A DNA stretch of 64,000 bases from a virus. The stretch covers positions 64,001 through 128,000 of IMG/VR virus record IMGVR_UViG_3300033273_000392; one strand, 5' to 3'. The translations under genes and the position numbers were made by a program. The notes below the pieces were generated by a model. It was not told where the DNA came from. It saw only the letters and a list, made by a program, of their open reading frames with translations, and searched no databases. Below are positions 14,905 to 62,781 of this stretch, in pieces. Positions within the stretch are counted from its first letter, which is position 1. Each line of letters starts with the position of its first letter.

Positions 14905-16224
14905 TTAACTTGGTAGCTTCAAAAAGACTCGCTTCATCTCCTGATCAATCCTAGTGATATCAACAGTTATCTTATCACCAGGACCAAAGCTCTTTATAAG
15001 GTCCTCACCTATCTCACTGACGTGGAGCAAGCCAACTACTCCTTCCTCAATAGAGATGAATAGGCCATAGTCTTTTGCGGTCTTAACAGTAGCCTCGACA
15101 GTAGAAGGGATCTTATACCTAGAGTTTATAGTCAACCATGGATTTACCTTATCTTCGTCCTTCTGAGTTAGAGTAATCTTCTTATTTGATATAATATCTT
15201 TTATCTTAAACGTTATAGAATCACCTGGCTTTATACTCTGTGACTTATGAGCTGCGGATGTTTCTTTGTCTAAATCGTTTACGTGAATCATACCGGTTAA
15301 GCACTGGTTAAACTCACAGAATACTCCGTACCTTGCAGTACCAGTAACAAAGCCGGTAATAGACTGATCTATATTCTCTCGAAGATTTTCGATCGCATCA
15401 GGTATTAGAGCCTGCAAATACTTTCTATGTGACACGACGATAGTACCTCTATCGTTTGAGAAAGAAACAGGAACGACATACATATCAGCCCCAACAATAG
15501 ACTCAAAGTCATGTAGCTTGTTTATACCCGCAAGAGAACCTGGCATAAAGCATGGAATTCCCTGCACGTCTACAATATAGCCTCCATTAGAAATCATCTC
15601 TTTAACAGTTCCCATCCATGCGGTATCTTTAGAGTCAATACCCTTTCTAAGTTCAGAAAATACTTTCTGCATCATGCCTGCAGTTATGCTCCCTTGGATA
15701 TGACCAACACCTTCATCAGTCTGGCATTCTGTAATTAGAACTGAGACTTCTTCGCCAACTCTGATATCTTGATACTGTGGATCCTCCTTAGAGATTTTGA
15801 TATAGACTAATTGTCTGTAATCAATGTCCACCGTAGCCCAGCCCTGTCCAATGTTGTAGACCTTACCGTCGTATATCGCACCTAGCGTCAGCTCATCGAT
15901 AAGGTTGTTCATGTTCTGACAGTTACTAAGTCTGTCATAGTATTCTTGAGCATATGGCTCAAACGAGAATACCTTCTCGTTATTCTGTGTCTTAACTCTA
16001 GGGTTTCCTTTCTTAAAAGATGAGAAACAAGTAGACTCGTATCCCTCCCAATTAAACTCCCCATTATCAAGTGTCCACTTAAGCCTTTCCTCATCAACAT
16101 AATCCTCTTTCTCAACTGGAGATTCAACCATGTTAAATCCCTTAAACTCGTTAAGTACGTTTAGGCTTTTCTCATTTGAGGATGTCTCTTCAGGCTTGAT
16201 CCTCGGTCTTTTTTTAGATTCCAT
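14905..16224 (-). CDS. rpsA: Multi-S1-domain RNA-binding protein (ribosomal protein bS1-like)
   Basis: About 4 S1 repeats: 'GGYIVDVQGIPCFMPGS', 'IVVSHRKYL', 'YGVFCEF...GMIHVNDL', 'DYGLFISIEEGVVGLLHVSEI'. Confidence 0.75.
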   Translation of the reverse strand: MESKKRPRIKPEETSSNEKSLNVLNEFKGFNMVESPVEKEDYVDEERLKWTLDNGEFNWEGYESTCFSSFKKGNPRVKTQNNEKVFSFEPYAQEYYDRLSNCQNMNNLIDELTLGAIYDGKVYNIGQGWATVDIDYRQLVYIKISKEDPQYQDIRVGEEVSVLITECQTDEGVGHIQGSITAGMMQKVFSELRKGIDSKDTAWMGTVKEMISNGGYIVDVQGIPCFMPGSLAGINKLHDFESIVGADMYVVPVSFSNDRGTIVVSHRKYLQALIPDAIENLRENIDQSITGFVTGTARYGVFCEFNQCLTGMIHVNDLDKETSAAHKSQSIKPGDSITFKIKDIISNKKITLTQKDEDKVNPWLTINSRYKIPSTVEATVKTAKDYGLFISIEEGVVGLLHVSEIGEDLIKSFGPGDKITVDITRIDQEMKRVFLKLPS

Positions 16225-28753: not shown

Positions 28754-31090
28754 TTATATAAGTCTTTTCTCAAGGTCTCTTCTCATCTTAACAAGCTTAG
28801 TAATACTAGCTTCCACGCTATCTAATCTACTTCCGTATTCATCAGATATTGGTCCACCTTCCATCTCAGCTTCTTGTTCCATATCAAATAAAAGCCGTTG
28901 TCTGTCAAGGTATAGTCCATTTAACTCTTTATTGAGCTTTTCAAGTTTAGCATAAACTTTCTTTATGTCCCTTTCTGCCATTTGTCTTTCTACATTAGCT
29001 CTTTTATCTAACTCAGCTCTTTTTGCTCTCATAGCCATAAGTACTGGGTCATTAATGTCCATTGCCTCATTTACAAATTCAGAGTACTTCTTGACAATAC
29101 CCTTATTTTCTTCTAGGTTGTTAAACTGTTCCATGTTGTTATATATCTGTTCTTTCATGGCATCTATCTCTTTTGACTTATCGATGGCCCAATCAACTCC
29201 TTCATCTCCTCCCCAAATCAACCAAGCAACATATCCTTTATCCTTCCACGGCGTATCTTTGTGCTCGGCAGAAATCTTTGAGTTCTTTCTATGTCTGTTA
29301 AACGCAGCCATACGCTTTACCGTTTCAGCAGATAGGTTTTCACCGTTAGCAAGCTGATTTGCTCTAGCCCATCCAACTGGAGTACCGGCATCAACCTCAT
29401 CTCTACCGTACTTGTCTCTCCACTCCAACGCCTTCTTTGCATTAGCCTTTGCTGCTGCAGGATAATCGTTATATGATTCTTCATTTAACGATGCCTCGGT
29501 AGTATAGACTACATTAGATCCAGACCACACATTTTGAGAAACCTCATAGTATGTCTGTCCTTCATACCTTCTTTTTATAACGCTCCAGTCTCCAGGAAGA
29601 GTCTTAAGAGATTTCTTTATGTATGCCATGTAGAATCTCCCTCTCTTAGAATCAATCTCACTCTTACCATCAGGTGAATCACCCTTAGGTGGAATGTACA
29701 ATGATTCTACTTTAAAGCCCGAATCCAATATATCTACGATAGCTTCTTTCATGATAGCCACGACCGTTGATAGAACTCTAAACTGTTCATGCATATTAGT
29801 CTGGCTTTCATCACCCTTATCTCTATCTGCAAGATTAAACGAAGCGGTTAGTACAACGTATCTTTTGTATTTAGGCTCCTTTTTAGGTTCACCTCCAAAT
29901 GAAAGTTGAAGGACGCCTTCTTTGTGCAGTCCGCCATTTAGCTTACAAATATACTTAACCCCGTCATCATTTATAAACTCCCATGTAAATTCAGCGTCCA
30001 TTCCGCCGTTACCTTTAGAGTTTGTTTTAACCTTAGAATCAAATGAGCCAAGTACCTTTTTAATAGTATCGCCGACTGGCTTATACCTAAACACCTTAGC
30101 AGAAGCGTCTCCGATCTCATTTAGCATGTAGGCCTCAAACGTATATGCCGGGTTACTAGAAATAAAGTCCTTTTTTCTCATAATAGTTTTAGCTATGATT
30201 TGGTTCACCCGCTTTACAAAAGGAATGTTTAGGTCGGTTCTTTTATCCTTAACGATAAACTCATCATATTGCTTCATAAACTTATCAAACTGCTTCTTTT
30301 TCTTGGCGAGCCTCTTAAAGAATCCAATAAGTTCAGCATCGGTAATGTCTTTATCATGTTCGACTCTAGTAAGTCTGTCGAAAAAGTGTTTTGTAAATTC
30401 TACGTCAGTCGGATCTAGAATGTCATCAGCATAATCTTCGATTCTATCCATATTAACCTTTTCCGATACAAAGCCATGTGCGTATCTTTCTCCGTTTCTT
30501 AACAATGCAGAAACTCTTGAGTAACCGTCAATCAACTCTCCATCTATAACGACAATTTCAAAGTCTAAGTCGTATTCACTTACATCATCGGAATGATATC
30601 GTTGTTCACCGCTCTTATAATACGCAGCTAAGTCAGAATCGGTTTTAAGCAATTTCTTAAGATCGATTTTTGTCATCTTAAAGTCTTTAGAAGTTACATC
30701 GTCTTCGAATCCCCATGGAATATCATCCTCTTCTGGAGTAATGCTAACTATATGGTCCCATACTTCTTCGCCAGACCATTTTCTTTCAACAATAAGAGAT
30801 TCATCCATCTTATCTAAAAGATCCTGTCGATCGAGCTGCTTATAAACCTCCCTTCTAGTCTTCTCCATTTTTTCAGCATACTTAGGATCGTCATTTCTGT
30901 TAAAGACAATCTGCTGAGTAAGAGAACCGCTAATCTTCTTAACGTCACCCTTTCTAGTCTTTATAAGCCATGCAGCAAGGTCCTTAATAGAAAGATCTTT
31001 AAATCTGCCTTCTGCATCAGGTGCATCTGAGTGATGAAAGTCAGGTGCTCCCTTAGGCTTCTTTTCATATAGAGGCTTTACGTATTTCAT
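28754..31090 (-). CDS. Multidomain leader-bearing protein / putative polyprotein, including a ParB-like domain
   Basis: ATG at 31090 (MKYVKPLYE) just after GATATATA; ParB-like 'IVVIDGELIDGYSRVSALL'; domains separated by Glu-ending linkers. Confidence 0.65.
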   Translation of the reverse strand: MKYVKPLYEKKPKGAPDFHHSDAPDAEGRFKDLSIKDLAAWLIKTRKGDVKKISGSLTQQIVFNRNDDPKYAEKMEKTRREVYKQLDRQDLLDKMDESLIVERKWSGEEVWDHIVSITPEEDDIPWGFEDDVTSKDFKMTKIDLKKLLKTDSDLAAYYKSGEQRYHSDDVSEYDLDFEIVVIDGELIDGYSRVSALLRNGERYAHGFVSEKVNMDRIEDYADDILDPTDVEFTKHFFDRLTRVEHDKDITDAELIGFFKRLAKKKKQFDKFMKQYDEFIVKDKRTDLNIPFVKRVNQIIAKTIMRKKDFISSNPAYTFEAYMLNEIGDASAKVFRYKPVGDTIKKVLGSFDSKVKTNSKGNGGMDAEFTWEFINDDGVKYICKLNGGLHKEGVLQLSFGGEPKKEPKYKRYVVLTASFNLADRDKGDESQTNMHEQFRVLSTVVAIMKEAIVDILDSGFKVESLYIPPKGDSPDGKSEIDSKRGRFYMAYIKKSLKTLPGDWSVIKRRYEGQTYYEVSQNVWSGSNVVYTTEASLNEESYNDYPAAAKANAKKALEWRDKYGRDEVDAGTPVGWARANQLANGENLSAETVKRMAAFNRHRKNSKISAEHKDTPWKDKGYVAWLIWGGDEGVDWAIDKSKEIDAMKEQIYNNMEQFNNLEENKGIVKKYSEFVNEAMDINDPVLMAMRAKRAELDKRANVERQMAERDIKKVYAKLEKLNKELNGLYLDRQRLLFDMEQEAEMEGGPISDEYGSRLDSVEASITKLVKMRRDLEKRLI

Positions 31091-35254: not shown

Positions 35255-35950
35255 TTACTCTCCGTTTGCAATCCTCCATCTATCGTATCTCTGTACGATC
35301 TCTTGTAGGATTTTAGCTCTAACGATATCTGCATCTGTAAACACGTGAAGGCCTACGCCTTTTACGCCTTCTAAAAGATCGATAAAGTCAGGAAGAGAAA
35401 CTCTGTCTAGTGCGATGTCATGCTGACTAGCGTCACCAGTAACAACTACCTTAGAGGATGCTCCCATTCTTGTTACGAATAGCATCAGCTGCTTAAAGGT
35501 AGCATTCTGTGCTTCGTCCAATATCATAAGCGCATCATCAAATGTATCGCCTCTCATATATGCTAGTGGCTCAAATCTTATAACACCTCTATCAAAGAGA
35601 CCCTTAGCTCTTTCTGGTCCTATTATCTTTTCAATATTTGACTTATATGACTTCATATATGGATCGATCTTCTCGTCCTTATCGCCAGGTAGGAAACCTA
35701 GTTTCTCACCAGCCTCTTGAATAGGCTTACAAAGTATAATCGTGTTTATTTCTTTACTATCAAGTAGTTTTAGCGCAGCATAACATGCCGTAAATGTTTT
35801 AGATGTTCCAGCTGGACCATAACAAAAAGTTATGTCACTTTCTAGTATTGTGTCTACGTATCTTTTCTGCGATTGTCTCAGCTGAACTTCTTTTAGCTGG
35901 CTAGCAACTGTCTTACGAGGCTGCTTTTGATTGCTATTGGCTCTTGCCAT
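35255..35950 (-). CDS. phoH: PhoH-family ATPase
   Basis: 'GPAGTSKT', 'EAGEKLGFLPGD', 'LAYMRG', 'ILDEAQN', 'TRMG..SKVVVTGD'. Confidence 0.95.
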   Translation of the reverse strand: MARANSNQKQPRKTVASQLKEVQLRQSQKRYVDTILESDITFCYGPAGTSKTFTACYAALKLLDSKEINTIILCKPIQEAGEKLGFLPGDKDEKIDPYMKSYKSNIEKIIGPERAKGLFDRGVIRFEPLAYMRGDTFDDALMILDEAQNATFKQLMLFVTRMGASSKVVVTGDASQHDIALDRVSLPDFIDLLEGVKGVGLHVFTDADIVRAKILQEIVQRYDRWRIANGE

Positions 35951-36362: not shown

Positions 36363-36538
36363 AACTTTTTCTGCACGTACTTTGCCTTTGCTTTCTTCTT
36401 TCTTCTGACCTGAGATTCCTTTTCAAACTCCTGTAGATTTCGAAGTGCACTCATCTGCCGAGTACGAATAACTTTAGATTTGTATTCTTTTAGTGCTTTT
36501 TCAATACCTCCCTTCTTGTCTACTTTAATTCTTAGCAT
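36350..36538 (-). CDS. rpsU: Ribosomal protein bS21 (Bacteroidota type)
   Basis: 'IEKALKEYKSK...LRNLQEFEKESQVRR...KAKYVQ'; 62 aa basic protein. Confidence 0.85.
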   Translation of the reverse strand: MLRIKVDKKGGIEKALKEYKSKVIRTRQMSALRNLQEFEKESQVRRKKKAKAKYVQKKFGGK

Positions 36539-36773
36539 TCTTATGAATATGATTTTTAACCATGACTAGATTAGCACACTTTTTATAGTCCTCTTTATTC
36601 TCATAGAAATCTATCATCTTATCTAACAACTTTATCTTCTTTATTGCGTTATGATTAAACGAGCTGAAGTAATCTAAGTTACTCATAACCGCTTCATAAA
36701 TAATATCGTAATTACTATCAACGTCTACAAGACGGTTTGTGGCAAAGCTGCTGAAAGTATTAAAATTGTGCAT
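36525..36773 (-). CDS. Small protein with C-terminal UVR-like motif
   Basis: 'MIDFYENKEDYKKCANL'. Confidence 0.55.
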   Translation of the reverse strand: MHNFNTFSSFATNRLVDVDSNYDIIYEAVMSNLDYFSSFNHNAIKKIKLLDKMIDFYENKEDYKKCANLVMVKNHIHKNAKN

Positions 36774-37576
36774 TAAGCTTCTCTGATCTGTTTGATTAAG
36801 TCGATTTGGGTTTGATTTAGCTCAGGATATGTAGAGTTAACCCTACACATTAGGTTTCCATTATCGCCAGTGTTATATATCGGATAACCTTTTCCTTTTA
36901 TCCTAAGAGACTTACCAATAGAATTTTGAGGTATGTTTATCTCTAGAGGCCCTTCCATTGTATTGATGGTCTTAGTGCACCCTAGCATGGCATCCCACCA
37001 TGGCATATAGATGTCCACCCAAATATCATTGCCCTGTAGAATAAAGTTAGGATCTTGTATAACATGCACGTTAACTACAAGGTCGCCATTAGGTAGATTA
37101 GAGTTGAATGGATGCGGTGCACCTTTTCCCTTAACATTAAACTTCTGACCGTTCTTTAGGCCTGGCTTAAAGTTTAGTCGGATGCGGTTACCATTGAATT
37201 CAAACTCTTTACTTGTACCGAAGTACGCCTCACTAAAACTTACGTGCAAGTCCATGCGATAGTCATGGCCTTTAGCTTGATTCTGATTACGGAAGTGGCC
37301 ACCAAAGATATGGTCAAACATATCTCCCATGTTTCCATTTACGTTAAATCCTGCAAATGGATTTCCACCAAAGGGATTACCAGAAGACTTATGATCGTAC
37401 TGTTGCCTCTTGTTCTGATCCCCTAAGGTCTCATATGCTTCGTTAATCTCTTTAAATTTGGAGTCATCTCCCCCTGTCTTATCAGGATGGTGTTGCTTAC
37501 TTAGTTTACGATACGCCTTCTTTATGTCATCTTGAGTTGCCGTCTTGTCAACTCCTAAAACGTCATAGTAGCTCAT
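36773..37576 (-). CDS. dnaJ: J-domain co-chaperone (class B DnaJ/CbpA-like, no zinc finger)
   Basis: 'YYDVLGV...IKKAYRKLSKQHHPDK'; G/F linker; C-terminal 'KGKG..GDL' domain. Confidence 0.92.
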   Translation of the reverse strand: MSYYDVLGVDKTATQDDIKKAYRKLSKQHHPDKTGGDDSKFKEINEAYETLGDQNKRQQYDHKSSGNPFGGNPFAGFNVNGNMGDMFDHIFGGHFRNQNQAKGHDYRMDLHVSFSEAYFGTSKEFEFNGNRIRLNFKPGLKNGQKFNVKGKGAPHPFNSNLPNGDLVVNVHVIQDPNFILQGNDIWVDIYMPWWDAMLGCTKTINTMEGPLEINIPQNSIGKSLRIKGKGYPIYNTGDNGNLMCRVNSTYPELNQTQIDLIKQIREA

Positions 37577-37713
37577 TTAACTTTTCGTTTTTCCTCTAAT
37601 CTAGCCTTCGCCTCTCTTCTTGAGCGATACTCTTCTAATTCATTAGCACGATCGAGAGCGTCGGCAATTCGAGTTAGTTGCTGTAAAATCTGATCATATA
37701 TCGTTTCTTCCAT
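37573..37713 (-). CDS. Small coiled-coil protein (46 aa, MEETIYDQILQQLTRIADALDRAN...)
   Basis: Manually found; ATGA overlap with the dnaJ start. Confidence 0.55.
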   Translation of the reverse strand: MEETIYDQILQQLTRIADALDRANELEEYRSRREAKARLEEKRKVK

Positions 37714-38257
37714 GTCGATTCTTAACTAGATCGGACTCACCATTCTGGAAGTCTTGATAAGGTAATGACTTATCTGGCTTTCCCTTGTGAGGGCCGTTTA
37801 CCATTATAGTATCTTTATACGGATTTGTTTCACCTATCTTATCACGTAACCAATCATCTAGGTCTTGTACGCTTCCCTGAAAGTGACGAATCTTTATTTG
37901 CTTTTCATCTTCGTCCTTTAGGTCTACTCGACCATCCGGTACGTTTGATTCATCTAAATCATCTTTAGCAGCTTCACGGTCTTTTGCAGTCTTTATCTTG
38001 GACTTAAGTACCTCTGCCTGTTTCTGTAGCATAAGTCTTTCAGCCTCGGCCTCTGATTGCCTCATTTGTACCTTTGCTAGACTAGATTGCATCTTTCCAG
38101 AAGGGTCATCTGAATCTGACATCTCCTTAGCAGTTTTTATAAACTCCTTTTGATCGTCAAATGCTTTAACAATCTTCTTATTGAGTTTTTTCAGTTTGCT
38201 CTTTACGCTTTTCTTTTTCTCAAATAAGAACTCTTCGTATATCTTAAGATACTTCAT
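37694..38257 (-). CDS. Leader-bearing putative internal head protein (coiled coil)
   Basis: N-terminus MKYLKIYEEFLFE; GATATATA at 38262-38269. Confidence 0.6.
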   Translation of the reverse strand: MKYLKIYEEFLFEKKKSVKSKLKKLNKKIVKAFDDQKEFIKTAKEMSDSDDPSGKMQSSLAKVQMRQSEAEAERLMLQKQAEVLKSKIKTAKDREAAKDDLDESNVPDGRVDLKDEDEKQIKIRHFQGSVQDLDDWLRDKIGETNPYKDTIMVNGPHKGKPDKSLPYQDFQNGESDLVKNRHGRNDI

Positions 38258-38260
38258 ACC

Positions 38261-38719
38261 TTATATATCAATAACTATTACTTTTGGATTTATCTTCATC
38301 TGAAATGCTATATCCATTCTTGTATTGCCACTAAATACAGTCATATTACCCTTACTATCTTTAGTGACTATTGGATAGTCTACTGGTTTTCCGTTTCCAA
38401 GCTTCTTATACAAATCCCTTAAAGTTTCCTCGTTTCTGTACTTAGGGTATGATGCATATCCCTTGATAAGGTTATGTAGATCATCAAACGTTTTTGTTCT
38501 AGATCTATTAGCTATCTTCATGTCCATTTTAGGAGTTATCTCTACGATATCGCCAGATTTAACAGCATCTATAAACTCTTCTTTAGAATCAAATAGATTC
38601 TTTGACTTTAGTTCGTGTTCAACCTTAAATTCTTGGGCCAACATCTTAGAGTCTGGCATAAACCATGAATTGTACTTTGCCTCAAAGACAAACTCTTCAA
38701 ATAGCTTAATGTGTTTCAT
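38261..38719 (-). CDS. Leader-bearing ParB/Srx-like domain protein
   Basis: MKHIKLFEEFVFE leader; 'YPIV...VFSGNTRMDIA...PKVIVI' ParB-N-like motif. Confidence 0.6.
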   Translation of the reverse strand: MKHIKLFEEFVFEAKYNSWFMPDSKMLAQEFKVEHELKSKNLFDSKEEFIDAVKSGDIVEITPKMDMKIANRSRTKTFDDLHNLIKGYASYPKYRNEETLRDLYKKLGNGKPVDYPIVTKDSKGNMTVFSGNTRMDIAFQMKINPKVIVIDI

Positions 38720-39633
38720 TTTCCGTAAGATACCTTGCTCTTTTCACCTCCTATCCAATCAAAGTCTTGAAATCTCAATGGATTTGTAACCTTCCACTTA
38801 TCAAAGTTTTCTGCGGATTGCTTAAGTGTATATTCAGGCAGGCCTTCTTCCCTTTCTCTTTTTTCCAAATCCGATAGAAAGTTACCACGAACTCTTTCAT
38901 CAACAATAACAAGAAAGTCTACTTTAATGGGAGCGTTACCTATTAAGAGCACTTCATCTTCACCCCACTTTGAAATACTATTAGATAGTTCTGGAGATAA
39001 TAAGAATCTAGAATTATCAGCCCTACAGCCATAAATTACAGCCACCTCTTTAGATTCATCATCCGGGCGCTTTCTTGCAAACTGCACGGCAGAAGTAGGA
39101 TCTACTGTCCATGAAGTAAAGCCGGCTTTATTTCTAGAACTGTATTTAATGCCAGGATTGTCAGTACCTATCATAAAGTCAAACTTCTCTCCCAATCTGT
39201 TAGTCTTTGGTAATAGCCTTTCTAGTTCTTTCATTGGCATCTTGGCGCCTCTCCAAAGCATATCTGTTGGCACATTTCCATACCATGCCAAGCCAGTTCT
39301 ACCAATAAACTCGCGCATATCCGCCATTCGTTCGCTTTTAGTTGGATCTAATAGTTTAGGAAACTTCTTTTTAATCTTCAACAGCGAGTTTAACATTTTG
39401 CCAAGATTAGTAGAGTTCTTCTCGTCTCTAAAGTAATCTTGTAGGTAACGTACTAACTGCTTTTCGTATTTTGTGTTATCTTCAAAACCTTCATCTCTGT
39501 ACATAACGTCAATAAAGTGATAGAATCTATCGTGGTCTTTACTTACCCTAGCGGCAAACTCGTCGTCGGCCAATAGCTTCTTACCTATATCAGCTTCATT
39601 TAAAAATTGTTCGTATAACTTGATGTACTTCAT
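38716..39633 (-). CDS. Leader-bearing ADP-ribosyltransferase-like protein (R-S-E class)
   Basis: MKYIKLYEQFLNE leader; LWRG ... FTSWT ... EDEVLL. Confidence 0.7.
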   Translation of the reverse strand: MKYIKLYEQFLNEADIGKKLLADDEFAARVSKDHDRFYHFIDVMYRDEGFEDNTKYEKQLVRYLQDYFRDEKNSTNLGKMLNSLLKIKKKFPKLLDPTKSERMADMREFIGRTGLAWYGNVPTDMLWRGAKMPMKELERLLPKTNRLGEKFDFMIGTDNPGIKYSSRNKAGFTSWTVDPTSAVQFARKRPDDESKEVAVIYGCRADNSRFLLSPELSNSISKWGEDEVLLIGNAPIKVDFLVIVDERVRGNFLSDLEKREREEGLPEYTLKQSAENFDKWKVTNPLRFQDFDWIGGEKSKVSYGK

Positions 39634-39643
39634 ATCCTATTTA

Positions 39644-40462
39644 TCAAAATGTCCTATAGTTTAAAGTAGGCCTACTCACCTTCCACTCGTCATATGTCAT
39701 ATCATTAAAGTTCATCTCGTCAGTCACCTGTGCACTAAACCTTAAGTCATCTATAATAATTACATCGGGTTTAAAACTTTTGCCTACTAGAATTACTTCA
39801 TTTTCATAAAACTTAGACAGCGCATTAGTCATAGTGTTATTAAAAATCAAGTTAGGGGTTTTTAGCTTAACTCCATATAGAACTCTAATTCTATCAGGCT
39901 TTTGCGTAACACCAAATCCTCTTGCATTATCAATGTGTGTTGAGAATGAAATAAAACCGTAGTTACCTCTTGGAGTGTTAGTATAGTTAGGACTGTCAAT
40001 CACTGCAACTGAATGCATACCTAAATTTATTAACCTAGATGCAGGTAGTAGGGCTTTTACATCCTTGCTAGTTATTGTTGCTCCTCTCCAAGCCATATTG
40101 TTCTTATACTGTTTACCAATCCGTTCAACAAACGTGCTTAGTGTTTTAACATTTGACACAGTTGGATCTAGAATCTTAGGGAACTTCTTCTTAAGCTTAA
40201 GAAGCTGTGGCAACAGTTTATCTAGATCTCCTTTTTCTAGTTTGCCCATAGGAGCATCAAAGTAGATCTGTAACTGATGTAGAATCTCGTTCTCATCGTC
40301 AGTGTTCGGCTCATAGTCCTGTTGGTATATCTTTTCAAGCCAGTCATCCCACTTCTGGTCAACTGCACGATTTCGTGGACCTGTAAATTGACCGCCGAAA
40401 AGTTGGCGACCTATCTCGATCTTCTCATTTAAGAAGCTTTGAAAGGGTTTGATATACTTCAT
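39644..40462 (-). CDS. Leader-bearing ADP-ribosyltransferase-like protein (R-S-E class), paralog of 38716-39633
   Basis: MKYIKPFQSFLNE leader; AWRG ... FISFST ... ENEVIL; shares 'KKKFPK(L/I)LDPT' with its neighbour. Confidence 0.7.
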   Translation of the reverse strand: MKYIKPFQSFLNEKIEIGRQLFGGQFTGPRNRAVDQKWDDWLEKIYQQDYEPNTDDENEILHQLQIYFDAPMGKLEKGDLDKLLPQLLKLKKKFPKILDPTVSNVKTLSTFVERIGKQYKNNMAWRGATITSKDVKALLPASRLINLGMHSVAVIDSPNYTNTPRGNYGFISFSTHIDNARGFGVTQKPDRIRVLYGVKLKTPNLIFNNTMTNALSKFYENEVILVGKSFKPDVIIIDDLRFSAQVTDEMNFNDMTYDEWKVSRPTLNYRTF

Positions 40463-40465
40463 GGC

Positions 40466-40864
40466 TTAATAGTCCGTGACCTTTTTAATTTTATTCCATG
40501 GGATTTGGCCATGATATTCGTAAGTATCTGAAGCTCCACCCGATCTAACATTGGAGTCATCGTGCAGTTTTTTAAGGTCTAACGCCTTTGAAGGAATATG
40601 AAGAACTACAATCCCTGAATCATATATTTCATCTGGCATTTCTTCGGCTGCTTCTGCATAAGAACCGGCAACATCTAAATCATTGGCAAGATAAACCACA
40701 CCTGCTTTAGAATCTTCCCACGCCAAATCCACCTTTCTAGTATCTAAGCCTTTCTTTTTTATTTCAGGTAGTAGAGCGTTATATGTAGCATGGTAAAAAG
40801 TATCAGGTACTTCTTGAGTTAGTGCTTCATTTAGAAATTGTTCATATATCTTGATATACTTCAT
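40466..40864 (-). CDS. Leader-bearing ADP-ribosyltransferase-fold protein (H-Y class, Tpt1/KptA-like)
   Basis: MKYIKIYEQFLNE leader; 'FYHAT...IKKKGL...VYLA...A.SYA...VVLHI...IP'. Confidence 0.65.
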   Translation of the reverse strand: MKYIKIYEQFLNEALTQEVPDTFYHATYNALLPEIKKKGLDTRKVDLAWEDSKAGVVYLANDLDVAGSYAEAAEEMPDEIYDSGIVVLHIPSKALDLKKLHDDSNVRSGGASDTYEYHGQIPWNKIKKVTDY

Positions 40865-40867
40865 AGC

Positions 40868-41797
40868 TTATTTGATTCTTTTAATATTCTTTGCGCTAGG
40901 CCCCCAGAAAAGAGCCTGGAATACGTTGTCTCCATAGTGAAACGCAACGATAGCTTCTGCCTCAAACTCAACGGCCTGCTTGGCATTCCAGTGCTTCATT
41001 GCCTTTTCTAATGACTTGTATTCGTATTCTATATAGTCTGCTGGGAAAGCATAGTTCCATCCTGGCTTAGGAGTTGCTGTCCTGCTGCCCCATGACATGC
41101 CTAGGTCGTTAAAATCTTTTGTGCCTCTAGTAAATCCGTTCGCTACAATAGCATCGGCATGATTTGTTAAGTGCACTAGCTTAGTTCCCTTAGGTACTCT
41201 ATTTGGCTCATCAAAGAAATAAGAGATAGGAAGCCTAGGATAGTATAATTTACTATTCACAGCATTGAAAAGCTTTTCTAGTTCCTCTTCAGTTGCTGTA
41301 TCGCCAGTTACTCCCTCTAGACCATTACTATGTACGACTTGTTTCATGCCCTTAAGGCCAATAATAAGGTCAAACTTTTCAGCAGGAGTTTTGTCTAGTG
41401 CCTTTTCTAGATCGTCTATCTTAGCTTCATTAACGAAGGATTCAAACAGGTTTAAGTGCTTCATATCAGTAACTCTTTTATTTGATTCGTTGTATCTAAC
41501 CATGGTCTCTCTGGTCTTAAAGTCATGCCTAGGCTTCTTCTTAAATCCAAACTCCTTATAGAACTTCTCTAGTCTAGATTTAGATGAAGCACCATAGTCA
41601 GTGCTAGGTGTCAAGTAGATCGTCTTGTTCATGCTATCCGCATAATCAATAACCTTCTGCATAACCCGTCTGCCTACTCCGCTGCCCCTAGCCTCTTCAG
41701 GAACTACAATTTTGCTTAGAGTTAAGTAGTCGCCATTATCATAAAGCTCAAGCTCTACACCAAATTCTTGTTCTATGTCTTGCAGTACGTATGACAT
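40868..41797 (-). CDS. GNAT acetyltransferase fused to a second (ART-like?) domain through an internal leader
   Basis: 'IVVPEEARGSGVGRRVM' acetyl-CoA motif, 'LEKFYKEFGF'; internal MKHLNLFESFVNE at 41464. Confidence 0.7.
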   Translation of the reverse strand: MSYVLQDIEQEFGVELELYDNGDYLTLSKIVVPEEARGSGVGRRVMQKVIDYADSMNKTIYLTPSTDYGASSKSRLEKFYKEFGFKKKPRHDFKTRETMVRYNESNKRVTDMKHLNLFESFVNEAKIDDLEKALDKTPAEKFDLIIGLKGMKQVVHSNGLEGVTGDTATEEELEKLFNAVNSKLYYPRLPISYFFDEPNRVPKGTKLVHLTNHADAIVANGFTRGTKDFNDLGMSWGSRTATPKPGWNYAFPADYIEYEYKSLEKAMKHWNAKQAVEFEAEAIVAFHYGDNVFQALFWGPSAKNIKRIK

Positions 41798-42765
41798 TAT
41801 AGACCGTATTTTTTAGTTAGGTATTCTTGAACATTACCGGTCTTATACTTTCTCATATCATCAGAAAGCATCTTAAAGAACTCTCGGTATATGTCGACCC
41901 TACGAGAACGCTTATCGTGCAAGTCGTTCATAAACGTTGCTGAAAATAAAGCGACATCTTGTTTCATATCGGATGTGTACATTTCAATCTCGCCTCTTAG
42001 CTTCGTTTCAATTTTACCATCGTAATACTTCTTAGCATCAGATAGATCTACTAGTCTGTCAATCTCCTTTTGGTTATCAGCGGCTAATGCTACAATAACT
42101 CTAGCGATTACTCTAGTGTCAAACCCTTCGATCTTAATAGGCTGATTCCACTCCTCATCATTTCTCTTGATCTGATCTTCAACGTCCTCAAGCTTTACGC
42201 CTCCCTTTTGATTTAAGAAGTTTCGCCTAGCATCTAGGTCGTTGCGGTCGCTGAAGTAAAGATACGTTGGAATCTTATTCTTCTTAATCCACTTAAGAAG
42301 CATATCGGTATCTTGTGAGTTCATATTCCATCTCTTTGGATCTTTATCGATATGAATCTCCTTTACGTACTGTGCTGCTTTAGCAATCTTAGGGTTATTC
42401 AACATAATACGGTCCTCCATTTCATGCGACCTTAGATTTCTATTTCCAGGCTCATATGCGTTACCTCTTTTCTTAATTTCCCAATAGTCAATAGGCTCGG
42501 CCTTGTATCTCTGCCCAAGCTTTCTTCCATCTAAGACAAACTTAACGACTCCACTTTGATATCCCTCTCGCTTAGATCTAGTAGTAGAAAAAAAGTATGT
42601 TCTACCCTTCTGAAACTTCTGATCAGCTTCGGTACCAACAGAAAGTGTACCAAAGAACGCATCATCCCCTGCAATACCAATTAATCCCGGGAATGAGGTA
42701 AAGTGATATACGACATCAGAGATGCCTTCGTTTAAGAACTGCTCAAATATCTTTAGGTATTTCAT
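41797..42765 (-). CDS. Leader-bearing protein with ART-like N-terminal domain
   Basis: MKYLKIFEQFLNE leader; 'VYHFT', 'FSTTRS', 'FVLDG', 'EMEDRI'. Confidence 0.55.
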   Translation of the reverse strand: MKYLKIFEQFLNEGISDVVYHFTSFPGLIGIAGDDAFFGTLSVGTEADQKFQKGRTYFFSTTRSKREGYQSGVVKFVLDGRKLGQRYKAEPIDYWEIKKRGNAYEPGNRNLRSHEMEDRIMLNNPKIAKAAQYVKEIHIDKDPKRWNMNSQDTDMLLKWIKKNKIPTYLYFSDRNDLDARRNFLNQKGGVKLEDVEDQIKRNDEEWNQPIKIEGFDTRVIARVIVALAADNQKEIDRLVDLSDAKKYYDGKIETKLRGEIEMYTSDMKQDVALFSATFMNDLHDKRSRRVDIYREFFKMLSDDMRKYKTGNVQEYLTKKYGL

Positions 42766-42769
42766 AGAC

Positions 42770-42777
42770 TATATATC
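42770..42777 (-). promoter_or_regulatory. Late-type promoter motif GATATATA heading the leader-bearing gene array
   Basis: 4 nt upstream of ATG 42765, just after a terminator. Confidence 0.6.
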
Positions 42778-42781
42778 AAAG

Positions 42782-42808
42782 AAAAAGGGCCCCCAAAAAG
42801 GGGGCCCT
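42782..42808 (-). terminator. Intrinsic terminator
   Basis: AGGGCCCCC-AAAAA-GGGGGCCCT perfect hairpin plus T-run on the minus strand. Confidence 0.85.
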
Positions 42809-42871: not shown

Positions 42872-43171
42872 TTAGACGCCTTCTAACATGAGGCTATCGA
42901 TCTCATTGCAAATTGGCAATAAGATTGCACAGCGCTCATATTGTTCCTCATCTTCAAAGTACTGAATCATCTTCTTAATAGTAAGATTCAGATCAGCCAG
43001 TTGAATAGGATCGAGTGAAAGCAAGTGAGACCGGTTCATACCTGACTCTTCGATCTTTTTAAAGTTATCCTCGATTGCTTGCTCTAGCATTCGCTCACGC
43101 AGTTTATTAATCTTGCGCTCGAACTCTGAGCTGCTATCCTCCATAAAATCGTCAAAATTAAACTCTTGCAT
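42872..43171 (-). CDS. Small protein with C-terminal UVR-like motif
   Basis: 'MIQYFEDEEQYERCAILL'. Confidence 0.6.
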   Translation of the reverse strand: MQEFNFDDFMEDSSSEFERKINKLRERMLEQAIEDNFKKIEESGMNRSHLLSLDPIQLADLNLTIKKMIQYFEDEEQYERCAILLPICNEIDSLMLEGV

Positions 43172-43266: not shown

Positions 43267-45117
43267 TTATTCTACTACCTCTGCTTCTACAGTCTCTTCA
43301 TCGGCTTCTCCCTGTTGCTGGGCATAAAGATCTTTAGATACCTCTTGCCATACTTCTGTTAGAGCTTCAGTCTTAGCCTTGCAGTCTTCTACATCACTTG
43401 ACTCGATAGCAGACTTAAGCGAGTCAAGCGCCTCGTTGAGCTGTGTCTTCTGATCCTCTAAAAGCTGGTCGTCCATATCCTTCATCTGATTCTCAGTAGT
43501 AAAGACCATGCTATCTGCTCGGTTCATAACATCGGCTCGCTCGCGCGCTTCCTTATCTGCATCGGCATTTGCTTCAGCTTCCTGCTTCATACGCTCGATA
43601 TCATCTTGGCTCAACCCGCTAGAAGCCTCGATACGGATCTTCTGCTCCTTATTAGTTGCCTTATCAGTTGCAGTTACATTGATGATACCATTAGCATCAA
43701 TATCAAACGTTACTTCAATCTGAGGAATACCTCGAGGCGCAGGTGGCAGGCCATCTAGGTGGAACCGCCCGATAGTATGGTTATCTTGCGCCATAGCTCG
43801 CTCGCCCTGGAGAACATGGATCTCAACGCTAGGCTGATTATCAGCCGCGGTAGAGAACGTCTCACTCTTCTTAGTAGGGATAGTTGTATTGGCGTCAATC
43901 AACTTGGTGAATACACCGCCCATAGTCTCAATGCCAAGTGACAGTGGCGTGACGTCTAACAAGAGGACATCGTTAACATCACCGGAAAGAACCCCACCTT
44001 GGATAGCAGCGCCAAGAGCAACCACCTCGTCTGGGTTTACTCCTTTAGAAGGCTCCTTACCAAAGAACTTACTTACCGCTTCCTGAACCGCAGGAATGCG
44101 CGTAGATCCACCGACAAGGATAACCTCATCAATATCACTTTTCTTTAAACCTGCTGCCTTCAAAGCGCTCTGGCATGGTTTAATGCTTCGCTTAACAAGA
44201 TCTTCAGTCAGCTGATCAAACTTAGAGCGGCTAAGGTTGCGAACAAGGTGCTTAGGAACCCCATCAACTGGCATGATATATGGCAAGTTGATTTCAGTAG
44301 ATGATGTGCTAGACAACTCGATCTTAGCTTTCTCTGCAGCCTCACGAAGACGTTGAAGTGCCATAGGATCCTTGGTCAAATCCAGTCCACCGTTCTCGTC
44401 CTTAAACTCCTGAACCAACCAATCAACGATAGCCAAGTCAAAGTCATCACCGCCGAGGTGTGTATCACCATCAGTAGACAAGACTTCAAAGACTCCATCA
44501 CCAAGCTCGAGGATACTAACGTCATGTGTACCACCGCCAAGGTCAAATACCACAATCTTCTGATCTGTATTCTGCTTGTCTAGACCATATGCTAGCGCTG
44601 CAGCAGTTGGCTCGTTGATGATTCGCTTCACCTCGAGACCGGCAATCTGGCCAGCTTCTTTAGTAGCCTGGCGCTGTGCATCATTAAAGTATGCAGGAAC
44701 AGTAATCACCGCTTCAGTAACAGAAGTTCCGAGATAGTCCTCAGCAGTCTGCTTCATTTTCTGCAAGACCATAGCGCTAATCTCCTGTGCAGTATATGCC
44801 TTTCCTTCAACATCTACGCTTACAGTGTCCCCCTTTCCTTTCTTAACAGAATATGCCACACGCCCTGCTTCTTTCTTAGATTCAGAGAAAGGCATTCCAA
44901 TAAAACGCTTAATAGACGAAACTGTGTTTTCTGGGTTAGTCACAGCTTGGCGCTTTGCAGGATCCCCGATTTTACGGTCGCCGTCCTTTGCAAATCCAAT
45001 TACAGAGGGTGTTGTACGTTTACCTTCAGAGTTCGTGATAACGATAGGCTCGTTACCTTCCATAACGGCAACACAAGAGTTAGTGGTACCGAGGTCAATT
45101 CCAATGATTTTACTCAT
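43267..45117 (-). CDS. dnaK: Chaperone DnaK (Hsp70), Bacteroidota-type
   Basis: '[10 protein letters not shown]', 'TVPAYFND', 'DLGGGT', '[17 protein letters not shown]', '[13 protein letters not shown]'. Confidence 0.98.
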
Positions 45118-45683: not shown

Positions 45684-46142
45684 TTAGAAATTTCCAGGTG
45701 CAACTTGAAAGCATGTAAGGCCATTATCCCGCCACATATCCACAACCTTCTGCCGATCATCAAACACACAGAGGATATCTGATTTATCGGTAAAGAGCTG
45801 GTCCAACCACTGCTTCTTTAATTGATCGTCAGGCATAAAGTTAAAGTCGTTTGAGGTTGGCCGCATCTTCAATACATCGAAGGGTACATCAAACTTATTG
45901 AGCCATGCCCGAGTAGCATCCTTAGTTGCCTTGCTCCGCCCACTAAGGATCACAATCATGTTGCCTGCATCTTTAAGCGTCTTGGCCATTTGGATAACAG
46001 GCATGTTTGGCTGATCCATATCAATATTATTAGGATCAAAGAACACATCCCAATCGATCTTACCATTGGGTTTAGTTGAGGCAGCCCGCCGCTTGTCGAT
46101 GAGGGCTAGGGTACCGTCGAGGTCAAAGATTACTTTCTTCAT
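45684..46142 (-). CDS. HAD phosphatase resembling the 3'-phosphatase domain of T4 polynucleotide kinase
   Basis: 'IFDLDGTLA', 'ILSGR', 'LKMRP', 'VFDDRQKVVDMWRDNGLTCFQVAPGNF'. Confidence 0.85.
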   Translation of the reverse strand: MKKVIFDLDGTLALIDKRRAASTKPNGKIDWDVFFDPNNIDMDQPNMPVIQMAKTLKDAGNMIVILSGRSKATKDATRAWLNKFDVPFDVLKMRPTSNDFNFMPDDQLKKQWLDQLFTDKSDILCVFDDRQKVVDMWRDNGLTCFQVAPGNF

Positions 46143-48818: not shown

Positions 48819-49313
48819 TCAGTCGCAGTTTCCTTCAGCTTCTGTCTCTATGTCTTCAACGTAAATCTTAGAGCTATCAATCCACCTATACTTCCTTGCG
48901 ATATTAGTAACTAGCTTTACGGAAGGAGAGAAGTAGTTAACTGCATCTGTAGATTCACATTCAGCATCCTCAAAGTCAAATACAAACTTCCATGCAAGAG
49001 AACCTACATTTACAGTTCCATCTCCATTAGCAACATAGTCCACATACGAATCATCAATAGGCTCTAGTGGAGTGTACATCTTAAAGTTGCTTATCATTCT
49101 TTTACTAAAGCTATTAAAGTGCCTTTGACAAAGAGCGTCTATTTCAGCAATAAAATCATTGAACTCATCAGCAGGAACATCGCTTGCGTTCTTTTTTGCA
49201 GATATCGCAAGATCAAAATCAGCAGATCCTTCTGACATACAATCTACCTCCCACTTTGGGTCTGGTCCATAGTACTCGTTTACGAAATCTCTAAATCCAC
49301 CTACGTGCTTCAT
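48819..49313 (-). CDS. Leader-bearing acidic hypothetical protein
   Basis: MKHVGGFRDFVNE; GATATATA at 49333-49340. Confidence 0.55.
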   Translation of the reverse strand: MKHVGGFRDFVNEYYGPDPKWEVDCMSEGSADFDLAISAKKNASDVPADEFNDFIAEIDALCQRHFNSFSKRMISNFKMYTPLEPIDDSYVDYVANGDGTVNVGSLAWKFVFDFEDAECESTDAVNYFSPSVKLVTNIARKYRWIDSSKIYVEDIETEAEGNCD

Positions 49314-50389: not shown

Positions 50390-51337
50390 TTAACTTTGAA
50401 TTTCAAATCTGTCAGGCTCAAGATCTAACGTCTTTTTATCTAGATATTCACTAAAATCAGATAACTCCTTATCAGCATCATCAGATAACTCCCTTCCATA
50501 GAAGTCCTTAAATAGAACTCTATATGCCTGAACAGTTATATCAAATGGTACACCTGGTTGTGAATTACTTTCTATAATGTAAACCTTTCCGTCTTTGTCC
50601 TCCATCACATCAAAGCAAATGTATGGGAGATCTTTGAATATCCTGCAATACTTGGATATGACTTCTTTAAAGGAATCAGGGACGTTCTCTGGATTTCTCT
50701 TTATATACTTAAACGACATCTTTTCCTCTCCCTTACCATCTCCACTTTTAGCTTTGTCGTTCATAGGCTTTCTTTCCATCCATGCAAATATCTCGCCTTT
50801 AAAGCAAACTAGACGATGCTCGGATTTCTTATCAATATATTGTGAATAAACTTCTAGCTTACTATGGTCTGCTGAATCAAATGACTCCTGATCCTTAAAA
50901 ACTTGAATGCCTAGGCCAGAATGTCCGCTAGACGGTTTAGCTATCATTGGAAAACCTATCTTCTCGATAGCTTCATCTTTATCAAAAGAAGTTTTAGGAA
51001 TATTTTCATCGTCACCGACAATCTCATGGAACTTCTTTTTTGACCCCGACATTTCAATAAACTCTGGCTTATTGTACACTTTATCTGGATCGATAAGGCC
51101 ATCATCAATAAGAGCCTTTACTACTTTGGAATTATACGTCAATACAGGAAACTCTGGATTTATCTCCATGTCCTTGTAGTTATCTAAATTAACCTGTACA
51201 AAGAAGTTATCGCCAGCAAAGCCTTTATAGCTCCACCAGCGATGACCACTTTTAGGATCGATAGCAAGATAGATTTTATGTAAATCTCCTTGCCTCTTCT
51301 CAGAAACAAACTGTTCAAAAAGCTTGAATTTACCCAT
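50390..51337 (-). CDS. Leader-bearing ATP-grasp ligase (RimK-like)
   Basis: Start MGKFKLFEQFVSE at 51337 after GATATATA; 'FPMIAKPSSGHSGLGI', 'QYIDKKSEHR', 'FDVM', 'IIESNSQPG'. Confidence 0.8.
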   Translation of the reverse strand: MGKFKLFEQFVSEKRQGDLHKIYLAIDPKSGHRWWSYKGFAGDNFFVQVNLDNYKDMEINPEFPVLTYNSKVVKALIDDGLIDPDKVYNKPEFIEMSGSKKKFHEIVGDDENIPKTSFDKDEAIEKIGFPMIAKPSSGHSGLGIQVFKDQESFDSADHSKLEVYSQYIDKKSEHRLVCFKGEIFAWMERKPMNDKAKSGDGKGEEKMSFKYIKRNPENVPDSFKEVISKYCRIFKDLPYICFDVMEDKDGKVYIIESNSQPGVPFDITVQAYRVLFKDFYGRELSDDADKELSDFSEYLDKKTLDLEPDRFEIQS

Positions 51338-51353
51338 AAGGTATATATCCAAG

Positions 51354-62741: not shown

Positions 62742-62781
62742 AAGGTATTTATCTTATGGACAAATACCTAAGAATTAAAAA

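Follow-up and report, generated by a model that had tools for sequence, protein, structure and literature searches.

Why should a run of neighbouring genes that encode largely dissimilar proteins carry one and the same short peptide? This question is raised by a 64,000-nucleotide (nt) stretch of viral DNA (hereafter the window; bases 64001-128000 of a 149,352-bp IMG/VR record with a CheckV completeness of 43%), in which seven consecutive minus-strand genes at 37694-42765 contain the 13-residue leader MK(Y/H)(I/L)Kx(F/Y)ExF(L/V)xE, six of them at the N-terminus and one internally, within a fusion to a GNAT acetyltransferase. We refer to the leader as the tag and to the protein that follows it as its cargo. 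The original prediction, made from the letters of the window, held that the leader is a capsid-targeting sequence of the kind found on the internal proteins of phage T4. Our analysis supports this interpretation: the protease, the head module, the cut motif, the late-promoter-like motif and the diversity of the cargo are all as it predicts, and we estimate at about 0.72 the probability that the leader is a T4-type capsid (prohead-core) targeting propeptide.

Occurrence of the leader in the record and in related phages

The leaders start at 42765, 41464 (the internal copy, at residue 112 of the open reading frame (ORF) 40868-41797), 40864, 40462, 39633, 38719 and 38257, and all seven consecutive copies that had been claimed are therefore present. 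A degenerate DNA pattern for the leader matched the window seven times, always inside the array, and gave no match in 100 dinucleotide shuffles. When the whole 149-kb record was scanned with a position matrix (at least 12 bits), 13 matches were found on the coding strand and a single weak one on the other, while 20 shuffles gave 0-1. Also, a hidden Markov model (HMM) scan, as had been proposed with the original prediction, was run: a model trained solely on the leaders of other contigs recovered 10 copies in this genome at E<1e-3, and the copy at 38257, whose orthologues have the canonical leader, scored E 0.14. Altogether the record contains 12-13 copies. All of them have (L/V/I)-x-E at positions 11-13, in a layout of Tyr or Phe at -6, Phe at -3, Leu, Val or Ile at -2 and Glu at 0, followed mostly by Ala, Ser or Gly. 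Once the leader was removed, BLAST similarity was left only between the 305-amino-acid (aa) product of the gene starting at 39633 and its 272-aa paralogue at 40462 (24% identity, E 2e-18). The statement that similarity stops right after the terminal Glu also held among 226 tagged proteins of relatives, where conservation ends at Glu13 and position 14 is just enriched in Ala, Ser or Gly (59%). A full-text literature search with leader strings turned up only T4's own MKTYQEFIAE, and no paper describing this leader was found.

Copies outside the array differ in strength. The 315-aa gene at 50390-51337 (minus strand) carries the leader MGKFKLFEQFVSE on a RimK-like ATP-grasp enzyme (Pfam RimK, 21.9 bits; PHROG 2599); the independent HMM detected this leader at E 6e-4 and orthologues with ~50% identity have canonical-type leaders, in agreement with what had been proposed. 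The 164-aa gene at 48819-49313 (minus strand; MKHVGGFRDFVNE) is a possible but weak case, since its 33 bits come from a matrix of which it is itself a seed and the independent HMM gave E 11. Two further genes that had been listed as tagged, at 31090 and 28718, did not hold up, being below 12 bits in the matrix and giving E 55 or no hit with the HMM. Beyond the window, leader copies were found at genome positions 15671, 15928 and 140219, together with a C-terminal remnant at 40441. A looser rule (aromatic-(I/L/V/M)-x-E within the 22 N-terminal residues) added seven of 143 genes, which is not above the 5.2% background, and the starts MNRFFTYKQFLFE, MNFNDYLNE, MKTFFEYLEE and MKGFYYLIE were for this reason not counted as tagged.

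The C-terminal remnant belongs to a DUF3008 protein (E 2e-10; genome 40391-40765, L123:92-466, minus strand) that ends in the leader-like MKYIYSFKSFLNE followed by RLEK. In three relatives (L020, L041 and L086), the DUF3008 protein runs in frame into a leader and a cargo of 94-369 aa. Because of these fusions and of the GNAT fusion in the array, it is suggested that the leader can occupy a C-terminus or serve as a cleavable joint between modules.

In GenBank, the nearest capsid proteins come from the 462-kb uncultured phage LR756500 (49% identity), the Prevotella Lak phages, other uncultured phages of 630-735 kb and Tenacibaculum phage PTm1, so that by sequence this is a T4-related giant phage, probably infecting Bacteroidota. 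Neither megablast of the region nor tblastn of the 305-aa cargo found a match among GenBank phages. We then scanned IMG/VR exactly with the back-translated leader, a pattern holding ~53 bits of information for which chance matches were estimated at far below 1, and found it in 85 stretches. Collected with the matrix, the relatives contain 226 unique N-terminally tagged proteins of 52-831 aa (median 143 aa), which form 118 BLAST clusters; a single 15-kb locus can contain as many as 15 tagged genes, and the consensus leader is MKHIKLFEQFVNE. Synonymous codons vary freely at every leader position (for example CAC 81/CAT 71, CTA 92/TTA 76 and TTT 129/TTC 92), which indicates that selection acts on the leader peptide. 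LR756500 has at least five leader copies. In LR756502 (loci L131-L163), a shorter variant, M(I/K)KK(Y/W)xxF(I/V)NE, stands on ~20-28 genes, and 28 N-terminal matches to (Y/F/W)xx(F/Y)(I/L/V/M)xE were counted there vs 3.4 expected.

Homologues of the first cargo of the array, a 322-aa protein whose ADP-ribosyltransferase (ART) fold is described below, show how the tag varies while the cargo persists. The close ones have this leader; the distant ones, from other phages, have other short peptides ending in (I/L/V)-x-E, such as MRAQEFITE (MRAxEFIxE), MRANEFLSE, MKINEILTE and MNLYDLFE, which end exactly where the (G/A)xSDxVYHxT domain begins. In Vibrio phage 6E35.1a, which like T4 belongs to the Straboviridae, the copy begins with MKKFNEFAKELEE|AATDIVYH. 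One of the phages with an alternative tag, a 337-kb ENA contig (L119:6363-14940), uses its tag repeatedly: eight neighbouring genes, including those for GP88-family, GH19 and amidoligase proteins, start with MRAxEF(I/L)xE. The same cargo can thus carry different tags, as the modularity of an address label predicts.

Head genes, putative cleavage motif and late-promoter-like sequences

A targeting propeptide of the T4 type calls for a gp21-like protease, and the original prediction had proposed looking for one elsewhere in the genome. Such a protease was found outside the window, next to a T4-type portal (Portal_T4, E 7e-73; genome 16005-17597) and a Gp23-type major capsid protein (E 3.9e-47; genome 11814-13328). 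It is part of a 632-aa prohead protease-scaffold protein (genome 13371-15269, L124:3672-5570, minus strand), whose residues 25-137 match Peptidase_S77 (PF03420) at E 1.8e-13 in the genome search, with 44-47 bits vs a cut-off of 27. The order of the head genes is portal, two small ORFs, protease-scaffold and capsid protein. Both small ORFs are tagged: the one at genome 15668-15928 starts MKHIKQFENFLNE, and the one at 15336-15671 starts MKYLRLFEQFLSE and has an acidic tail like that of T4 gp67. They occupy the same interval between portal and protease as the T4 core-protein genes 67 and 68, and relatives have a leader-like small ORF in this slot. In line with these observations, 15 of 20 long tagged contigs encode Gp23, the five without it being fragments (30-74% complete), and the S77 protease is encoded by all five near-complete tagged contigs. 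Because the tag is also present on small core-type proteins in the gp67/gp68 slot, it would serve as a general address for the prohead core and not be confined to enzymes for ejection. The description of the tag as a label for enzymes to be ejected consequently stands as far as enzyme cargo is indeed tagged, and has to be widened as far as core-type proteins are tagged too.

In T4, gp21 takes propeptides of 10-20 residues off the internal proteins, Alt, gp23 and gp24 and chops gp22, gp67 and gp68 (PMC5694885, PMC3012670); Alt is trimmed at both ends (PMC5694885). The sites given in the T4 record are MKTYQEFIAE|A in IPII and IPIII, ...ITE|A in IPI, MLKEQLIAE|A in gp22 and ...LRE|S in gp24, and our leader agrees with MKTYQEFIAE at Y/F-x-x-F-(I/L/V)-x-E. 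It ends in hydrophobic-x-Glu, the cutting rule of T4 gp21, mostly with a small residue after it. Two head proteins of the phage follow the same rule. The scaffold domain of the 632-aa protein repeats Y-x-E-(Y/H)-(L/I/V)-A-E each 14 residues, with (L/I/V)AE at 268, 282, 296, 310, 324 and 338, and in LR756501, LR756502 and IMG/VR relatives this periodic repeat (YSEYIAE/YSEYLAE) is more regular and reaches up to 12 units. The capsid protein starts MANLINE|AEIR in at least 10 relatives and, counted from the second Met, MNRINE|AEIR here. Since leader, scaffold repeats and capsid N-terminus follow the same rule, we infer that the protease cuts after aromatic-aliphatic-x-Glu, that the scaffold would be cleared by being cut into 14-residue pieces, and that the leader would imitate one scaffold unit. 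A further observation concerns the gene downstream of the capsid gene (genome 9801-11015, L124:102-1316, minus strand), which encodes a 404-aa Ala/Glu/Lys-rich protein starting MIRLNKKLMMFESFNDS (MKLSKKLMLFEEFTQT in relatives). This start resembles a degenerate leader, and its bearer is a candidate for a further core or internal head protein.

The motif GATA(T/A)ATA, which had been reported to precede nearly all tagged genes, occurs in the whole record 44 times on the coding strand vs twice on the other. It precedes the portal, protease-scaffold, tail-region and large fibre genes and, among the tagged genes, those starting at 42765, 39633, 38257, 51337, 49313 and genome 140219. Inside the array, it is found on the minus strand as GATATATA at 42770-42777, GATAAATA at 39638-39645 and GATATATA at 38262-38269, each time 4 nt before the ATG of the first, fifth and seventh cargo gene, respectively. 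Elsewhere in the window it lies at 51342-51349 (again GATATATA, 4 nt upstream of the tagged ATP-grasp gene), 19 nt upstream of the gene starting at 49313, and at 62746-62753. Because of its likeness to T4's TATAAATA, GATA(T/A)ATA may be a late promoter. A terminator-like hairpin of nine pairs, eight of them G-C, followed by a T run (42786-42808, minus strand), closes the unit of the neighbouring DnaK gene just upstream of the array. Given the positions of the motif and the hairpin that separates the DnaK unit, the array looks like three late units. The reported association was accordingly overstated: three of the seven array genes (42765, 39633 and 38257) directly follow the motif and the other four lie inside the units so defined. 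As for its distance to start codons, the motif falls into two classes, of 4-5 nt and 19-31 nt, and the shorter spacing would give leaderless or nearly leaderless mRNAs.

Cargo proteins of the array and their neighbours

The first gene of the array (322 aa; 41797-42765, minus strand, as are the six that follow) comprises the leader MKYLKIFEQFLNE (42727-42765), an ART-fold domain (residues ~10-186) and a helical C-terminal domain. Its AlphaFold2 (AF2) model, with a predicted local distance difference test (pLDDT) of 85.9 and a predicted TM-score (pTM) of 0.84, was aligned by VIA-align with Tpt1 7yw4 (Z 9.6, root-mean-square deviation 2.7, 112 aligned residues) and with DarT (Z 8.1, 7.5 and 6.7), the top eight rows being Tpt1, DarT, KptA and one small structural-genomics protein (2jqn). 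Tpt1 and DarT were also the top rows of Foldseek, all at E>0.001. YHxT, STTRS and ExEDR are conserved among 84 homologues; within the family, the conserved residues include the candidate catalytic residues His21, Arg63 and Glu115/Glu117. Pfam gave no family over this domain, either for the 322-aa protein or for 64 relatives. Judged by its model, this cargo has an ADP-ribosyltransferase fold.

The second gene (309 aa; 40868-41797) encodes the GNAT acetyltransferase (residues ~9-88; Pfam Acetyltransf_7, 30.6 bits, and also a match to a PHROG profile of 3925 positions), followed in frame by the internal leader MKHLNLFESFVNE (41426-41464) and by a 198-aa domain without a recognised fold. In relatives, this domain is a stand-alone gene that begins at the leader; the search of its profile against PDB sequences returned chance-level rows only. 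In the third gene (132 aa; 40466-40864), the leader MKYIKIYEQFLNE precedes a Tpt1/KptA-like domain of the ADP-ribosyltransferase superfamily. The family has 504 relatives (representatives) at E<=0.001, and its profile matched among PDB sequences only KptA/Tpt1 (E 0.004-0.01, over the NAD-binding YHxT segment) and then DarT. The cargo itself scores 15.2 bits with PF01885 (Tpt1/KptA), below the cut-off of 26. On the basis of this sub-threshold score and of the PDB matches, it would be a distant ART-superfamily relative and not a member of the Tpt1 family. In P0114, a relative, the homologous domain scores 31.2 bits and thereby passes the Pfam PTS_2-RNA cut-off, and the domain is also found within giant proteins of 700-1662 aa beside Zeta-toxin and M78 domains.

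The fourth (272 aa; 39644-40462; leader MKYIKPFQSFLNE) and fifth genes (305 aa; 38716-39633; leader MKYIKLYEQFLNE) encode the two paralogues mentioned above. The 305-aa protein contains a helical N-domain and a probable ADP-ribosyltransferase domain (residues ~115-250), and the pair shares invariant WRG, GF(T/I)S(W/F)(T/S) and E(D/N)EV columns in the R-S-ExE order of ADP-ribosyltransferases. The AF2 model of the 305-aa protein, built on an eight-sequence alignment, is poor (pLDDT 48.5). Every structural match of this model that covers residues 115-249 is an ART, all of them weak (Z 4.8-5.5): Vis 4xzj (Z 5.5, 21% identity), TreX, KptA and pertussis S1. The ESM Atlas gave a lead to DRAT (0.92). 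For the pair, no Pfam match was obtained, the profile returned chance-level rows only against PDB sequences, and the genome search found no match to the ADPrib_exo_Tox and DRAT families (PF03496 and PF07357). Together, motif order and model suggest that both cargos are probably ADP-ribosyltransferases of the R-S-ExE (Alt/VIP2/C3-like) type.

The sixth cargo (152 aa; 38261-38719; leader MKHIKLFEEFVFE) had no family in Pfam or PHROG searches. The seventh (187 aa; 37694-38257; leader MKYLKIYEEFLFE) consists of a Lys/Glu-rich coiled region and a conserved C-terminal module; its last 79 residues are 75% identical to the protein of a relative (L017) that starts MKYIKLFEQFVAE. Like the sixth, it received no assignment. 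Taking the array as five ART genes is not established, because the profile of the 322-aa family gave no significant alignment (hhalign) with the 132-aa and 198-aa cargos: the fold is seen in one cargo, a second is a distant relative by sequence, two more are probable cases and the last is unassigned. When the ten proteins listed with the original prediction were searched against Pfam and PHROGs, five had no match and the others yielded just GNAT, ATP-grasp and weak hints.

Pfam searches of 116 cluster representatives from the relatives identified Acb1-like, Tad3-like, Zeta-toxin, GNAT, cytidylyltransferase and ATP-grasp proteins, most representatives being without a family. The tagged Acb1-like protein, a 2H phosphoesterase of the type that counteracts the cyclic-oligonucleotide-based antiphage signalling system (CBASS), is encoded at L039:2293-2832 (minus strand; 29.4 bits). 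The Tad3-like Thoeris inhibitor is one tagged member of alignment A5 of the relatives (E 4.8e-22). If packaged, these two proteins would be pre-loaded immune inhibitors.

All long ORFs of the window are on the minus strand. The seven tightly packed genes are bracketed by two chaperone genes, a full-length Hsp70/DnaK (43267-45117, minus strand; HSP70 E 5e-262) and a DnaJ with J domain and C-terminal domain (36773-37576, minus strand). Right downstream of each lies a small minus-strand ORF, of 99 aa beside DnaK (42872-43171) and of 82 aa beside DnaJ (36525-36773). Both share the C-terminal motif ..(Y/F)(F/Y)E(D/N)xE(Q/D)Y(E/K)(R/K)CA(I/N)L.. and have no Pfam family; they may be paired co-chaperone adaptors. 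A PNKP-type HAD phosphatase (45684-46142, minus strand, E 5e-32) and a PhoH-like ATPase (35255-35950, minus strand, E 7e-63) adjoin this chaperone/cargo block.

Proposed capsid targeting, its alternatives and known systems

If the leader is a capsid-targeting propeptide, its use may be pictured as follows. Late in infection the leader, an amphipathic helix resembling one scaffold repeat, would dock the protein on the scaffold core during assembly of the shell. The S77 protease would cut after the terminal Glu of the leader, at the same type of site that would be used in dismantling the scaffold, and the cut would free the mature protein within the head. The freed proteins would exit with the DNA at the next infection and act before any phage gene is expressed; this set would include ART-fold enzymes, GNAT and ATP-grasp and, in relatives, the Acb1- and Tad3-like anti-defence proteins. 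Where the leader is internal or C-terminal (GNAT-leader-cargo; DUF3008-leader(-cargo)), one polypeptide would give rise to two packaged products.

Several points weigh against this interpretation. The phage is uncultured, and cleavage, packaging and ejection of its tagged proteins are predictions from its genome. The cut site is read from a motif whose P2 residue is Asn in the leader and the capsid protein and Ala in the scaffold repeats. Some of the cargo, such as the RimK-like ATP-grasp enzyme, could equally act inside the producing cell, and for the 305/272-aa pair the assignment to the ARTs depends on motifs and on a model of low confidence. Because the leader itself served to select the loci of relatives, the conservation of positions 1-13 there is partly circular; this does not apply to the drop after position 13 or to the diversity of the cargo. 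Finally, Lak-A1, PTm1 and LR756501 gave no match to the strict leader pattern, the one form searched there, and the tag is thus not universal in the wider group.

Other explanations of the shared leader have to be considered. The tag might target the prohead core and yet stand on proteins that help in structure or assembly, which would be broken down or retained in the head rather than being delivered, perhaps with the tag still in place. The two tagged ORFs in the gp67/gp68 slot, with the gp67-like acidic tail of one of them, and the many small tagged proteins of relatives without a known domain are what such helpers would look like. However, proteins with an ART fold, Tpt1-like, GNAT, Acb1-like and Tad3-like proteins belong to classes used against host macromolecules or immunity and have no obvious job in assembly, and in T4, Alt, IPI and IPIII set a precedent for ejected proteins with a tag of this kind (PMC5694885; bioRxiv 10.1101/2022.04.14.488369). 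We consider this explanation unlikely. It is more improbable still that the peptide has no function and that the first 13 codons, with a promoter 4 nt upstream, are an expression cassette for the translation of leaderless mRNAs or a recombination joint for gene swapping. A cassette would account for the short distance (4 nt) between GATA(T/A)ATA and the downstream ATG in four tagged genes (42765, 39633, 38257 and 51337) and for the high turnover of cargo among relatives, with its 118 clusters. Yet the amino acids are fixed while synonymous codons vary freely, most tagged genes have no adjacent motif, unrelated starts follow the motif at 4-5 nt in other genes (window 62741; genome 21290 and 11747), and the leader is also internal and C-terminal. 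A role of the leader in recombination could nonetheless exist alongside targeting.

The DnaK and DnaJ genes that bracket the array, and the character of the leader as a short hydrophobic-basic peptide, could also point to a docking site for the phage's own Hsp70/DnaJ, which would fold or hold the tagged proteins. This explanation fails because Hsp70 is missing from all 20 leader-bearing relatives, of which two are complete, and is by the same token an acquisition of this phage's lineage; in addition, tagged genes are found far from the chaperone genes, at genome 15671 and 15928, genome 140219 and window 51337. We regard it as very improbable, and give even less credit to the tag being the recognition sequence of one modifying enzyme, for example a radical-SAM partner, after the logic of ribosomally synthesised and post-translationally modified peptides (RiPPs). 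Radical_SAM matches are absent in this record and in the five near-complete tagged relatives, all of which have the S77 protease, and the cargo consists of large folded enzymes rather than short precursors.

Compared with what is known of other phages, capsid targeting by the leader has precedents. In T4, IPI, IPII, IPIII and Alt carry a capsid targeting sequence (CTS) that the gp21 prohead protease cuts off (Mullaney and Black 1996, as summarised in PMC5694885 and PMC3012670). Both the CTS and our leader are short N-terminal peptides common to unrelated proteins, start with MK and end in aromatic-(I/L/V)-x-Glu followed by a small residue (MKTYQEFIAE|A in T4, MKYIKLYEQFLNE|A here). Both phages have a gp20/gp21/gp23-type head module, and proteins with an ADP-ribosyltransferase fold are among the cargo here, as T4 Alt is there; expression of the tagged genes may also be late. 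In contrast, the tag has 13 residues here and 10 in T4, and 12-13 tagged genes are found in 43% of a genome vs three internal proteins plus Alt in T4. The cargo is mostly enzyme-sized instead of small and basic, the tag is also internal and C-terminal, the protease is fused to the scaffold, and the system is known here from sequence alone. The claim of a bigger scale than in T4 is therefore right for the number of tagged genes, whereas a diverse set of internal proteins sharing one targeting sequence is already known in T-even phages (PMC3012670). In kind, this would be the T4 targeting-sequence system in a new lineage, to which a larger, enzyme-rich cargo set, the link between tag and scaffold repeat and the use of the tag as a joint would be added.

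Similar domain types are predicted to be injected as parts of the polyvalent proteins of phages and conjugative elements (Iyer et al. 2017, PMC5512222) and as head-packaged ARTs (PMC9503650). The two systems have in common ART-superfamily, GNAT and Zeta-toxin-like domains and a predicted purpose, delivery with the DNA; moreover, domains related to those of the 132-aa and 322-aa cargos also form part of larger proteins (700-1662 aa), next to Zeta-toxin, M78, ART-PolyVal and GH19 domains. Here, however, the domains are encoded separately, by tagged genes for 132-322 aa, and not in a giant polypeptide with a MuF or portal-associated module as its anchor; instead of many effector domains in one large polypeptide, only the GNAT fusion joins two modules. 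In the giant phages phiKZ and SPN3US, long N-terminal propeptides of ejection or inner-body proteins are cut by an S80 protease (PMC5694885, PMC10052503). There too, a gp21-related prohead protease processes proteins inside the head by cutting behind the Glu of a short motif, and incorporation is believed to be guided by the propeptides, but these mostly have 80-130 residues and no one shared sequence, the motif is (A/S/G)-x-E, and head architecture and lineage are different.

A wider proposal, to which we give somewhat less than even odds, is that the tag is a portable address label that would define from sequence alone the whole capsid-preloaded, injected set of a clade of 250-640-kb Bacteroidota-type giant phages. 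The cargo families, well over 100, would comprise ADP-ribosyltransferases of several types as well as proteins directed against CBASS and Thoeris. In this proposal the label works by copying one 14-residue unit of the scaffold repeat and would therefore co-assemble with the scaffold and be cut by the same protease, whether it stands N-terminally, internally or C-terminally, which would let evolution plug in effectors or string them into cleavable chains. The match between tag, scaffold repeat and capsid N-terminus offers a testable picture in which one protease specificity may organise the assembly, clearing and loading of a giant head. If the tag acts as T4's does, engineers of such phages could also use it to package proteins, a purpose that the T4 tag already serves. 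The tagged set, rich in ART-fold enzymes and including Acb1- and Tad3-like proteins in relatives, would supply candidates for host takeover and anti-defence, the majority of which have no known family. A 13-residue motif would then predict which proteins uncultured giant phages carry in their capsids to act in the first seconds of infection, sets that are otherwise known only through virion proteomics of cultured phages.

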